Origin: Clostridia bacterium
GTDB lineage: Bacteria; Bacillota; Clostridia; TANB77; RGIG9151
Direction: 5' to 3'
Assembly (NCBI GenBank): GCA_017934955.1
Contig: JAGBIO010000024.1
Span: forward strand, 14,550 to 78,549
Length of the DNA: 64,000 nucleotides
Under the pieces are notes generated by a model, which saw only the letters and a list, made by a program, of their open reading frames with translations, made no database searches and was not told the DNA's origin. Numbering within the stretch: the stretch's first letter is position 1; each line of letters begins with the position of its first letter. The position numbers and the translations under genes are program-made. Below are positions 4,128 through 58,752 of this stretch, piece by piece.

Positions 4128-4197
4128 GTAGGGACAGCATAAATGCTGTCCCTACAATCCATCTTCTGTACGGACAGCATTCATGCTGTCCTGCTTT
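4128..4197. repeat. REP-like doublet (family A)
   Basis: TGTAGGGACAGCATAAATGCTGTCCCTACA is fully symmetric, with GTAG on both sides. It is followed by cTGTACGGACAGCATTCATGCTGTCC. Confidence 0.8.
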
Positions 4198-8295: not shown

Positions 8296-8450
8296 ATAGT
8301 TATTATTCAGACTATATCTCCTATAATACCGATACACCCATTGTAGGGACAGCATTCATGCTGTCCTGCTTTTTGCCTTTTCTGTGGACAGCATAAATGC
8401 TGTCCCTACACTATTTATGCTATTTCTATAAATTTAAGTCTGAATAGTAC
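8296..8450. mobile_element. MITE-like element: REPIN (inverted REP doublet) flanked by ~12-bp terminal inverted repeats TATTCAGACT...AGTCTGAATA
   Basis: Core TGTAGGGACAGCATTCATGCTGTCC...GGACAGCATAAATGCTGTCCCTACA with outer inverted repeats TATTCAGACTATA / TTAAGTCTGAATAGTA. The same architecture recurs at 12300-12460, 17330-17460, 17490-17630, 32935-33060 and 46130-46250. Confidence 0.7.
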
Positions 8451-8500
8451 CGTTATATAGGCAAAATCTTCAACTTTTCCTATATAAGAAAAAAAGGGCT

Positions 8501-12299: not shown

Positions 12300-12460
12300 T
12301 AAAGAGATAGTTACTGATCAGACTTAACAACTTATTATTTTCGCTAAAGCCTTGTAGGGACAGCATTCATGCTGTCCTGCATTCCGCATTTTCTGTGGAC
12401 AGCATAAATGCTGTCCCTACACTATTTATGCTATTTCTATAAATTTAAGTCTGAATAGTA
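12300..12460. mobile_element. MITE-like REPIN element (family A) with AGTCTGA-type outer inverted repeats
   Basis: TGATCAGACTTAACAA...TTGTAGGGACAGCATTCATGCTGTCC...GGACAGCATAAATGCTGTCCCTACA...TTTAAGTCTGAATAGTA. Confidence 0.7.
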
Positions 12461-12469
12461 ACAAGAGAG

Positions 12470-12610
12470 AACAAAAGTGTTTTGCGCAGGCAAAACACCT
12501 GCGCCGAACGCGAGTTGCGTAGCAACATTCCTTTCGCGTGAGTGTGCTTCCCTGCGGAGCGTTTTTTGTTGTATAGGCAAAATCTTTGATTTTTCCTATA
12601 CAACAAAAAA
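12470..12610. repeat. ~140-bp composite structured repeat (family E), copy 1 of 3
   Basis: AAAAGTGTTTTGCGCAGGCAAAAC...GCGAGTTGCGTAGCAAC...TGTATAGGCAAAATCTTTGATTTTTCCTATACA with several internal hairpins. Near-identical copies lie at 40985-41125 (opposite orientation) and 46113-46128 plus 46255-46400. Confidence 0.75.
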
Positions 12611-12640
12611 ATCCTCCGGTATCTCTACCGAAGGATTTTG
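12604..12640 (-). terminator. Rho-independent terminator of the rpsF-ssb-rpsR operon
   Basis: On the minus strand, AAAATCCTTCGGTAGAGATACCGGAGGATTTTTTT is a hairpin plus T-run, immediately after the rpsR stop. Confidence 0.5.
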
Positions 12641-13431: not shown

Positions 13432-13722
13432 TTAGTCTTCTTTTTTAATTGTAATAAACTTCAATACGCTGTCTGTAATCTTGTAAACTCTTTCTAATTC
13501 GCTGATAAATTCAGGATTTGCTTCAAAGTTTACCAATACATAATAGCCTTGTTCAAACTTTTTAATCGGATAAGCAAGCTTTTTGAGGCCCCATTCTTGA
13601 GTCTCGGAAACCTTACCACCTTCCGTTTCAATCAAAGTATTGAATTTCTCAACGATTCCCTTCATTGCTTCTCCCTCTGTATTAGGATTTACAATGTAAA
13701 TTGATTCATATTTGTTGAGCAT
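13432..13722 (-). CDS. rpsF: 30S ribosomal protein S6
   Basis: 96 aa, MLNKYESIYIVNPN...EWGLKKLAYPI..., the classic S6. It is the first gene of the rpsF-ssb-rpsR operon. Confidence 0.9.
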   Translation of the reverse strand: MLNKYESIYIVNPNTEGEAMKGIVEKFNTLIETEGGKVSETQEWGLKKLAYPIKKFEQGYYVLVNFEANPEFISELERVYKITDSVLKFITIKKED

Positions 13723-13810
13723 TCATTTCACCTCCTTTTGGACTTCTTGACCCTGTCCTGCGACAGAGTAAGGAAAACTGCCTTATCATCATATCACAGG
13801 TTTACAAAAA
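13723..13810 (-). promoter_or_regulatory. rpsF promoter (TTGCAT-17-TATGAT) and a putative S6:S18-binding 5' leader
   Basis: On the minus strand, TTGCATtttttgtaaacctgtgaTATGAT is followed by a ~65-nt leader containing the CTGTC-GCAG-GACAG hairpin before the RBS GGAGGTG. S6:S18 autoregulatory leaders are known at this position. Confidence 0.4.
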
Positions 13811-13861
13811 ATGCAAGAACAAAACAAATTTTTTCTGTTTTCTCTTTCTGATTTCGCCCAA

Positions 13862-13893
13862 ACTGTAGGGGACGACGTCCTCGACGTCCCGCT
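13862..13893. repeat. REP-like hairpin, family C
   Basis: cTGTAGGGGACGACGTCCTCGACGTCCCGCTTT. Confidence 0.8.
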
Positions 13894-13971
13894 TTTTCTA
13901 CCGCCATTATATTCCATCTATTTCCAATTTTCAATCAAAATCATTCGACAAATTTCGCACATTGAAAAAGT

Positions 13972-14190
13972 AGCTGTAAAAAAACTGCCTCAGGAAAATA
14001 AAATTTTCAAAACAATGACGGAGAACCGGCAAGTACAAACGGATAAGGAATGGGTAAACTCAACACGAGGTTGAGTTTAGCTTACCCCTGCCATGGACGG
14101 CAGATGTAAGCGGCCCATTCCGTTTCATTTTGTACTCCGGTTTGTAGTCCCTGTTTTGAAAATTTTATTTTCCTGAGGCAGTTTTTTACA
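13972..14190. repeat. ~210-bp element bounded by 35-40-bp perfect terminal inverted repeats with a highly structured interior (candidate MITE or structured ncRNA)
   Basis: Left arm CTGTAAAAAAACTGCCTCAGGAAAATAAAATTTTCAAAACA (13972-14012) and right arm TGTTTTGAAAATTTTATTTTCCTGAGGCAGTTTTTTACA (14148-14190) are perfect reverse complements. The interior has nested helices CCGGCAAGTACAAA/TTTGTACTCCGG and AAGGAATGGG/CCCATTCC and hairpins GGTAAACTCAACACGAGGTTGAGTTTAGC and CTGCCATGGACGGCAG. Confidence 0.5.
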
Positions 14191-14200
14191 ACCACTTCTA

Positions 14201-14881
14201 TTAATTTAATCCTCTTACTCCGCTCACACCCGCAAACTGTGCCGTACTTAACACATACGCCTCCTTATGCGGTGCAAAATTGTGATAAACGGGATCGTTG
14301 GTAACGGTATTGCGGAATTGCTGTAAAAAATACTTATCCCCACGATTCACAAAAGTATGGGCAATCTCGTTAATATCGTTTCGATCCAAAATCGGCAAAT
14401 ACGTCGTCCGAAATTCATGTTGAATTCCGCTTTTCTTAATTACTTCAATGGATTTCTTCAAAACTTCCAAATCCACTTCTCTGCCAACCACTTTTCTATA
14501 CTTCTTCGGCGACGCCTTTATATCCATCGCAATATAATCAATCAATTTTTCCTGCAAAAGCTCCTCAATCACTTCCGGATGTGTCCCGTTGGTATCTAAC
14601 TTCACTTTGTACCCCAACGCCTTAATTTCCTTAATAAAATCCTTCAAATCAGGATTGCAAGTCGGTTCTCCACCGCTGATACAAACCGCATCCAACATAT
14701 CACGACGCAATTTCAAATATTCCATTACTTCCTTCTTTTCAATATAATTTCCATCGCCGGAAATCAGAGAAGGATTGTGACAATAACCACAATTAAAATT
14801 ACATCCCACCAAAAAAATCGAACAAGCCAATTCTCCCGGATAATCTACCGTCGAAAGTTTCTCATAACCGCCAATTCTCAT
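14201..14881 (-). CDS. nrdG: Anaerobic ribonucleoside-triphosphate reductase activating protein (radical SAM)
   Basis: 226 aa with a CNFNCGYC radical-SAM cluster motif near the N-terminus. It sits immediately downstream of nrdD. Confidence 0.85.
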   Translation of the reverse strand: MRIGGYEKLSTVDYPGELACSIFLVGCNFNCGYCHNPSLISGDGNYIEKKEVMEYLKLRRDMLDAVCISGGEPTCNPDLKDFIKEIKALGYKVKLDTNGTHPEVIEELLQEKLIDYIAMDIKASPKKYRKVVGREVDLEVLKKSIEVIKKSGIQHEFRTTYLPILDRNDINEIAHTFVNRGDKYFLQQFRNTVTNDPVYHNFAPHKEAYVLSTAQFAGVSGVRGLN

Positions 14882-32934: not shown

Positions 32935-33060
32935 TAAAAATGGCACAAACACTGTAGGGACAGCATTCATGCTGTCCTGCATTCCGCATTTTCTGCGGAC
33001 AGCATGAATGCTGTCCCTACAAGGCTTTAGTGCAAATAATAAGTTGTTAAGTCTAACCAG
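32935..33060. mobile_element. MITE-like REPIN element (family A)
   Basis: CTGTAGGGACAGCATTCATGCTGTCC...GCGGACAGCATGAATGCTGTCCCTACAAGG...TTAAGTCTAACCAGTAAC. Confidence 0.7.
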
Positions 33061-38164: not shown

Positions 38165-38402
38165 AATATATTGTAGGGTCACAATTCATGCTATCCTGCC
38201 TTTCTGTCTTTTCTGTGGACAGCATAAATGCTGTCCCTACACCATTTGTGCCATTTTCTACATTTGAAAAATACAGGCGTACGGACAGCATTCATGCTGT
38301 CCTATTTTCCAACATTCGCTCATTTCCCGGACACAATGAATTGTGTCCCTACGGCGATTGTGCCATTATTGTAGGGGACGGCGTCCTCGACGTCCCGATA
38401 TA
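38165..38402. repeat. Cluster of five REP-like hairpins mixing stem families A, B, C and a hybrid
   Basis: ATTGTAGGGTCACAATTCATGCTATCC (a decayed A/B hybrid), GGACAGCATAAATGCTGTCCCTACA, CGTACGGACAGCATTCATGCTGTCC, CGGACACAATGAATTGTGTCCCTACGG and TTGTAGGGGACGGCGTCCTCGACGTCCCG. Confidence 0.8.
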
Positions 38403-58682: not shown

Positions 58683-58752
58683 TTGTAGGGTCAGCATTCA
58701 TGCTGTCCTGCTTTCTGCCTATTCTGTGGACAGCATAAATGCTGTCCCTACA
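58683..58752. repeat. Family-A REPIN inside the dnaA-dnaN intergenic (oriC) region
   Basis: TTGTAGGGTCAGCATTCATGCTGTCC...TGTGGACAGCATAAATGCTGTCCCTACACC. Confidence 0.8.

Follow-up and report, generated by a model that had tools for sequence, protein, structure and literature searches.

The stretch between nrdG and rpsF in the 64-kb segment of a Clostridia contig that was analysed here (hereafter the window) forms one long hairpin (13968-14197, 230 bases), which is very probably a divergent copy of the TwoAYGGAY motif (Rfam RF01731), with the P1 closing stem of that motif accounting for what the sequence-only reading had described as terminal inverted repeats. The element is a variant of a known orphan family; its P1 is selected to stay paired and the element has long been resident. 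It is well supported that the family is a self-folding hairpin of ~230 nt, in which a very long P1 closes off a conserved internal loop and a pair of small apical hairpins. This orphan motif is common in Clostridia of the human gut and occurs in some Gammaproteobacteria, a tested function for it was not found in the literature, and it was still called "relatively unexplored" in 2025 literature. The copy described here belongs to a subfamily with a single AYGGAY loop, which bears on the published two-site CsrA hypothesis and on the question of RNA versus DNA.

Identity and fold of the element

On the + strand, cmscan aligned the interior of the element (14016-14150) to the whole RF01731 model at 50.6 bits, above the gathering threshold of 43. 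E was 5.4e-07 when the search was local and 2.6e-05 when it covered the full window, and no other Rfam family reached threshold in the 64 kb. The cloverleaf-like interior, for which an Infernal/Rfam search had been suggested, is thus placed above the gathering threshold of TwoAYGGAY, and no tRNA was found. The loop of the second apical hairpin reads AYGGAY, as the family requires (ATGGAC, closed by a C-G pair), and the internal loop TGACGGAG / GTAGTCC aligns with the two termini of the Rfam model, which are conserved and unpaired (UauggaA ... GuAguuu), with GGA at 14020-14022 (within ACGGAG) unpaired in the predicted fold. The host, a Clostridia bacterium, lies inside the taxonomic range of the motif (Clostridia, Gammaproteobacteria, human gut). 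A large closing P1 stem is likewise present, with ~44 bp of it extending beyond the Rfam model, in addition to P2-P4; P1 was noted to be 'often very large' by those who described the family (Weinberg et al. 2010, PMC2864571). The first hairpin loop fails the AYGGAY that gives the family its name, being a 5-nt ACGAG here and ACGAT in a related species, and the element is therefore filed as a variant subfamily and not as a textbook TwoAYGGAY member. The parts of the element and its surroundings are collected in Table 1.

Table 1. Parts of the element, flanking genes and short repeats, in window positions.
Feature	Position	Strand	Details
5' base of closing stem: imperfect outer extension and A7 run	13968..13984	+	inverted repeat; pairs with 14182-14197
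Outermost helix	13968-13971 / 14194-14197		predicted fold
P1 5' arm, perfect 30-bp helix opening with G+C-rich clamp CTGCCTCAGG	13985..14014	+	outside Rfam model
RF01731 TwoAYGGAY match, full model (1-168)	14016..14150	+	50.6 bits
Internal loop, 5' side ATGACGGA	14015..14022	+	faces GTAGTCCC at 14144-14151; cmscan alignment and fold
5' strands of inner helices: P2 14023-14029, P3 14032-14039, P4 14047-14055	14023..14055	+	partners at 14113-14143
P2, AACCGG/CCGGTT	14023-14029 / 14137-14143		fold
P3, AGTACAAA/TTTGTACT	14032-14039 / 14129-14136		fold
P4, GGAATGGG/CCCATTCC	14047-14055 / 14113-14121		fold
Apical hairpin 1: 9-bp stem, 5-nt loop ACGAG (14065-14069), not AYGGAY	14056..14078	+	cmscan and fold
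Apical hairpin 2: stems GCTTAC/GTAAGC and CTGCC/GGCAG, loop ATGGAC (14093-14098)	14080..14111	+	cmscan and fold
3' strands of P4, P3 and P2, and internal loop 3' side with GTAGT	14113..14151	+	cmscan and fold
P1 3' arm (14152-14181), T6 run (14182-14187), imperfect outer extension	14152..14197	+	ends 4 nt from nrdG stop codon
nrdG, anaerobic ribonucleotide reductase activase	14201..14881	-	element 4 nt beyond stop codon
nrdD-nrdG	17066-14201	-	context
rpsF, first gene of rpsF-ssb-rpsR operon	13432..13722	-	element ~250 nt upstream, motif strand antisense
GTAG-headed short palindromic repeat, then TTTTT	13865..13890	+	context, outside the element; 7 copies in window
GTAGGGACAGCAT-NN-ATGCTGTCC repeat, example sites	1052-1079, 2440-2619, 4128-4191, 8343-8409, 12354-12420, 17368-17592, 32954-33020, 38213-38302, 58685-58751		

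The inverted-repeat search returned arms of 51 nt (13979-14029 / 14137-14187) with 88% complementarity, together with an outer extension at 13968-13983 / 14182-14197. The gapless perfect stem measures 36 bp (13979-14014 / 14152-14187), and the MFE fold contains a 30-bp helix (13985-14014 / 14152-14181) and a 9-bp A/T helix (13975-13983 / 14182-14190), which are separated by a single bulged A because the A-run has seven bases and the T-run six. The arms quoted in the earlier description (41 and 39 nt) are thus perfect except for this single bulge. The predicted fold has 93 base pairs, only two of them G-U, and folding energies (in kcal/mol) of -123.4 and -129.1 for the + and - strands, respectively, compared to about -52 for shuffled sequences (z = -16.9 and -16.7; 0/200 shuffles folded as well). 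Every one of the interior helices quoted earlier, at least four, was recovered in both the sequence and the predicted fold, and the overlapping 87-aa ORF has no Pfam match on record. The 30-nt arm matched at the two arm positions only in the 64-kb window, with a chance expectation of 0. For annotation, the gain is that the 87-aa gene call can be struck as spurious and the MITE lead as false.

Relatives of the locus and the closing stem across the family

In the related Clostridia species L278/L279 (RpsF 79% identical), rpsF likewise has a TwoAYGGAY element (73.6 bits) upstream, in antisense orientation. The 75-nt arms of that element are 97% complementary and form an uninterrupted 68-bp stem (z = -21), and their sequence is unrelated to that of the arms here. 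Hairpin 1 reads AAAAACAAC-ACGAT-GTTGTTTTT in L278 and AAACTCAAC-ACGAG-GTTGAGTTT in the window, while hairpin 2 reads GCTTTT..GCGAC-AGGAC-GTCGC..AAAAGC and GCTTAC..CTGCC-ATGGAC-GGCAG..GTAAGC, respectively, with the changes compensated in the hairpin 1 stem and in both hairpin 2 stems. The base of the stem has the same A-run, clamp and T-run layout in both elements, which in the window reads A7 - CTGCCTCAGG ... CCTGAGGCAG - T6/T7 (T6 on the + strand, T7 on the - strand). That at least two Clostridia species have retained the element upstream of rpsF, with its arm sequences wholly replaced, is well supported. An element in the same place with compensatory changes is therefore old and under structural selection, and since the L278 arms are perfect yet unrelated, perfect arms are not a sign of recent origin. 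This element and that of L278 show that covariation is strongest in the closing stem, most of which the Rfam model leaves out, and that the stem can change its entire sequence and still be perfect. The impression of a selected fold in the sequence-only reading is borne out by the Rfam threshold being passed and by strong covariation of the whole stem in the family, including the part beyond the model. L280/L281, which share the PTAC-rpsF synteny of L278, have 183 nt between the two genes and no element, and gain or loss therefore happens.

On the other side of the hairpin, no separate terminator was found between it and the nrdG stop codon. Retention of the element downstream of nrdG was ruled out by five relatives (NrdG 70-90% identical) in which nrdG is followed by an ordinary terminator, at the position taken here by the hairpin base, and by other downstream genes. 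The element is thus tied to rpsF and not to nrdG.

The 5' leader of rpsF (...GGCAGTTTTCCTTACTC ... GGGTC.AAAAGTCCAA.AGGAGGTG) is strongly conserved in all relatives, as seen at 13723-13830 of the window, at 2870-3000 of L278, and in L280, L283, L286 and L276; an Rfam search with E values up to 10 returned nothing for it, and it might be an autoregulatory leader. In the closest relative (RpsF 93% identical), three independent assemblies (L273, L274, L275) break 27-51 nt upstream of rpsF, and the Logan contig of the source strain (L002) ends within the arm of the element; the contig ends near the element and rpsF look like assembly breaks at repeats or hairpins. The closest relative also has a c-di-GMP-I riboswitch (68.6 bits; L273 2821-2930) upstream of a large Flg_new/Gly_rich protein gene, and no riboswitch was found at Rfam threshold in the 64-kb window.

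Two other families of short repeats were observed in the window. The dispersed palindromic repeat GTAGGGACAGCAT-NN-ATGCTGTCC gave 34 strand matches compared to 0 expected, at about 20 sites, with copies often arranged as inverted pairs ~40 nt apart, and its GTAG head and paired layout resemble REP/REPIN elements. A direct repeat (8341-8495 / 12352-12611; 109 nt at 96% and 44 nt at 86% identity) is built from this type, with one copy downstream of rpsR and the other ~4 kb off. The second GTAG-headed palindromic repeat, GTAGGGGACGNCGTCCTCGACGTCCC, has seven copies (8227, 13865, 22885, 22945 on the - strand, 38371, 50444 and 60895), and the copy closest to the element lies between it and the rpsF promoter region. 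No Y1/RAYT-type transposase was found among the 10 window ORFs scanned.

A metagenome scan for the two classic loops returned 120 loci, nearly all of which were true TwoAYGGAY members. Two groups can be told apart among them, one from the human gut (40-55% G+C) and the other of Pseudomonas/soil type. The gut members are hairpins of ~270-320 nt, with the apex enclosed by a median of 73 pairs and with perfect Watson-Crick runs of up to 47 bp. In the family alignment, the core is strongly conserved, and the outer stem is barely conserved in sequence yet complementary. Across 22 sequences, pairing cells amounted to 93.6%, compared to 77.4% in shuffles and at most 46% with partners slid, and changes on both sides were seen in 52/75 pairs, including 35/35 pairs of the two outer helices. 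Agathobacter rectalis has four full copies in 246 kb of a record labelled a plasmid that carries ribosomal protein operons, with near-identical cores and four different outer stems, each of them almost perfectly self-complementary, and Psychromonas ingrahamii has at least five copies. Since copies in one genome have different, self-complementary outer stems, the arms are copy-specific, and they are therefore unlike terminal repeats recognised by a transposase. In copies from close relatives, single-arm changes (79 sites) far outnumbered double changes (9 sites), which rules out arms changing in concert by gene conversion; the arm changes look like ordinary compensatory evolution.

The gut copies sit in many unrelated intergenic contexts beside ordinary chromosomal genes, and no conserved neighbouring gene was found, with 27-30 flank groups among 53 copies and no shared function. 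Gene 3' ends are favoured (11 convergent, 10 and 7 co-directional and 3 divergent among 43 context clusters), copies are often located at most 35 nt from a stop codon, and both orientations relative to the flanking genes were seen. A fixed orientation to replication or genes was considered and rejected, with no significant bias relative to the majority gene direction (19 vs 9 clusters, the window copy being in the minority). In the flank, a T located 6 nt before the conserved CACAG is nearly invariant (20/21 contexts), and classic copies have no T-run after the stem, the 12 nt that follow containing 2.3 T on average. The gut consensus has recurring TAGCG(A/T) boxes, which resemble the ssoA CS-6 box; a role as a rolling-circle single-strand origin was dropped, as no rolling-circle plasmid or phage carries the element. 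The idea of variable stems serving as phage or plasmid guides was also discarded: this element and one classic gut copy match no phage record, and the one 'plasmid' match of the classic copy is really chromosomal DNA, with none for this element.

Further observations were made on individual contigs. NZ_CP143948.1 (L290-L295), an Agathobacter rectalis 'plasmid' record, holds rpoB/C, tuf, fusA and the main ribosomal protein operons and looks like chromosomal DNA. Some contigs have a pair of TwoAYGGAY elements at a distance of ~400-450 nt, with the two arranged in tandem on L155 but facing opposite ways on L159 and L202. Partial extra copies of the outer-arm sequence, or 'solo arms' (ACGTAAGCACCGG...GCGCACACG), were found 30-70 nt upstream of complete gut elements in L208, L182, L159 (- strand) and L265, which hint at past rearrangement or tandem insertion. 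On Pseudomonas-like contigs (L023, L028, L038, L124, L128, L132-L134, L136, L137, L139 and L141; e.g. L137 2790-2990, - strand), mutS follows closely downstream of TwoAYGGAY in the same orientation, and the motif is at the edge of viral regions called by IMG/VR. A module 3' of the Pseudomonas-like motif (GCTTACTTTT...AAAAGTGAGCCGCCGTCAGGGCGGAA) recurs after the Psychromonas copies, so that in Gammaproteobacteria the conserved unit extends beyond what the Rfam model covers.

How the hairpin might act

The reading that I prefer combines TwoAYGGAY identity with action as a transcribed RNA, and as a combination it falls slightly short of an even chance; action as RNA rather than DNA, taken by itself, is evenly balanced. 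In this model, the + strand would fold as a single strand and be the acting form, and the element would most likely be transcribed, in the direction leading away from rpsF, into a rod-shaped RNA of ~215 nt and great stability. GGA loops would be shown at the apex of this RNA, namely ATGGAC of hairpin 2 and the unpaired ACGGAG, on which a dimeric GGA-binding protein of the CsrA type could dock, and the RNA would owe its stability and its defined ends to the long perfect duplex. In its sequence, the stem base has the form of a bidirectional intrinsic terminator, and it would probably end the nrdDG transcript too. I infer all three activities, transcription, protein binding and transcription termination, from sequence and predicted fold. 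A convincing consensus promoter was not found on the + strand directly upstream of the element, and among 48 gut copies promoters were no more frequent on the motif side (4) than on the opposite one (5). As to termination, the clamp CTGCCTCAGG/CCTGAGGCAG and the T-runs are present, the 'loop' consists of ~137 folded nt, which is atypical for an intrinsic terminator, and the terminator scan made no call.

A CsrA-binding small RNA was proposed for TwoAYGGAY by Gardner and Eldai (2015), with tandem G-A stem motifs cited too (PMC4333381). No report of CsrA binding to the motif was found in the literature that was read, and csrA was found neither in the 64-kb window nor at any locus with a true element. 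In the predicted fold, one GGA is exposed in a loop (14095) and one in the internal loop (14020), and two more are partly or fully paired. Clostridia and Gammaproteobacteria, the range of TwoAYGGAY, both include organisms encoding CsrA, and C-AYGGAY-G resembles the RsmE/CsrA hairpin consensus, A/UCANGGANGU/A. The two-site CsrA model fits the rpsF-linked subfamily poorly because hairpin 1 has no GGA either here (ACGAG) or in the relative (ACGAT), and it is a better fit to the classic family. CsrA as the partner of the element is doubtful.

Alternatively, TwoAYGGAY may be a DNA hairpin, either folded ssDNA or an extruded cruciform, with its loops read by a DNA-binding or DNA-processing protein and the label 'RNA' a misnomer, which I consider possible, if on the unlikely side. 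The pairs are nearly all Watson-Crick, G-U making up 2 of 93 bp here, and wobble is rare family-wide (G-U 82 vs A-C 58 in 2,298 cells); so few G-U pairs are unusual for RNA and fit a constraint at the DNA level. A promoter or terminator at a fixed position is lacking, and both orientations to the flanking genes occur. A preprint of 24 September 2026 (10.64898/2026.09.22.753630) contains, by term counts, TwoAYGGAY 52 times and ssDNA 5 times, and its abstract pairs 'TwoAYGGAY' with 'hairpin' and 'DNA hairpin', although these terms are perhaps unconnected; CsrA, Hfq, RNase III, dsRNA, conjugation, integrase and anti-phage are not mentioned in it. Against DNA, the paired sites that vary among close copies show G-U 36 vs A-C 16 on the Rfam strand. 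This excess favours a folded form specific to that strand and, with the published tandem G-A motifs (PMC4333381), fits RNA at least equally. A DNA hairpin on the lagging-strand template is at odds with the inconsistent orientation of the copies noted above, and no conserved neighbouring protein gene was found.

A further idea, which seems quite unlikely, is that TwoAYGGAY elements are not conventional sRNAs but strand-specific chromosomal hairpins, in which a perfect duplex of 40-70 bp, particular to each copy, lies under a conserved protein-docking apex. This could be a DNA hairpin recognised by a dedicated protein, or an RNA whose copy-specific duplex is cut (e.g. by RNase III) into copy-specific small RNAs. 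If true, the rpsF-linked subfamily, which has lost one AYGGAY loop and kept a 36-68-bp perfect stem, would be a natural variant with which to dissect the needed parts.

It is improbable that the element is a REP/BIME-like selfish extragenic palindrome, spread in trans by an enzyme recognising the apex and tolerated 3' of genes, where any influence on termination or on the stability of mRNA would be incidental at most. Such an origin would suit the multicopy state in Agathobacter rectalis and Psychromonas ingrahamii, the syntenic presence and absence in L278 and L280/L281, the preference for gene 3' ends (11 convergent vs 3 divergent contexts) and the 'solo arm' remnants upstream of some copies. 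However, the copies of one genome are old, with individually distinct outer stems, and orthologous between strains, and all outer-stem pairs covary, pointing to selection on each copy and not to recent bursts; moreover, the window holds one copy compared to ~27 genuine short GTAG-headed repeats, and no associated transposase was found.

A still weaker case can be made for an interior that has no specific function, so that nrdG and the rpsF operon would be separated by no more than a bidirectional terminator of unusual size or a palindromic spacer that has degenerated. The presence of an A-run, a G+C clamp and a T-run on either strand at the stem base, their shared layout in the L278 element and the lack of another terminator after nrdG all suit this reading, but the interior passes a curated covariance model, it shows compensatory changes relative to the L278 element, and classic members have no T-run after the stem, making this reading very improbable.

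Finally, a MITE, derived from an IS by recent internal deletion and bearing 36-40-bp arms that a transposase would recognise as terminal repeats, would explain the long perfect inverted repeats and the lack of coding capacity, but its probability is negligible: the arm is unique in the 64-kb window, a 21-nt arm probe against 185,579 species-representative genomes (the source MAG not among them) gave one chance match, in a coding region, blastn gave no match to the arm in phage or plasmid collections, a direct-repeat search of 13700-14500 found no flanking direct repeat, the L278 element at the same position has unrelated arms, and the arms differ between family copies of one genome. The very recent MITE origin that had been read from the perfect arms is not supported, as neither a second copy, a matching IS nor a flanking repeat was found and the arms of the relative are equally perfect and different; the proposed blastn comparison of the arms for more copies or a parent IS gave nothing in the window, phages or plasmids, and only the chance match in the representative genomes. 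With regard to a target-site duplication, no direct-repeat family was found in 13700-14500, and the L280 empty site is too diverged from L278 to define one.

Comparison with known systems

Like MITEs, the element is short and non-coding and has long inverted repeats at both ends; unlike MITEs, it has arms that are not conserved between copies, and no parent IS, target-site duplication or repeated terminal repeats were found for it. With REP/BIME, ERIC and Correia-type palindromes, it shares an extragenic location, a preference for gene 3' ends, a varying copy number and a stable hairpin able to end or stabilise transcripts. It differs from them in being much larger, with a complex conserved apex and copy-specific covarying arms, and in having no GTAG-headed short unit, the GTAG repeats of the window being a separate family.

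As in the small RNAs that sequester CsrA/RsmA (CsrB, RsmY/Z), a loop GGA is closed by C-G, here as C-AUGGAC-G in hairpin 2, and more A(C/A)GGA motifs are present (14020, 14041, 14047). In contrast to these sponges, there is one canonical loop site here, with no promoter found and no csrA in the window, and the known sponges do not have a 40-70-bp perfect closing duplex.

The element departs from classic TwoAYGGAY by having no ACAG and CGUCA boxes and by its hairpin 1 loop (ACGAG, the loops of the related species being ACGAT and AGGAC), and P1 reaches 36-68 bp further than the Rfam model in this element and that of the related species, being bordered by A-runs and T-runs in this A+T-rich lineage. 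With TwoAYGGAY as described (Weinberg et al. 2010, PMC2864571), it shares two adjacent apical hairpins followed by CGG and flanks that are conserved and unpaired (UGACGGAG ... GUAGU); its P1 is very large as well, and its host likewise belongs to the Clostridia.
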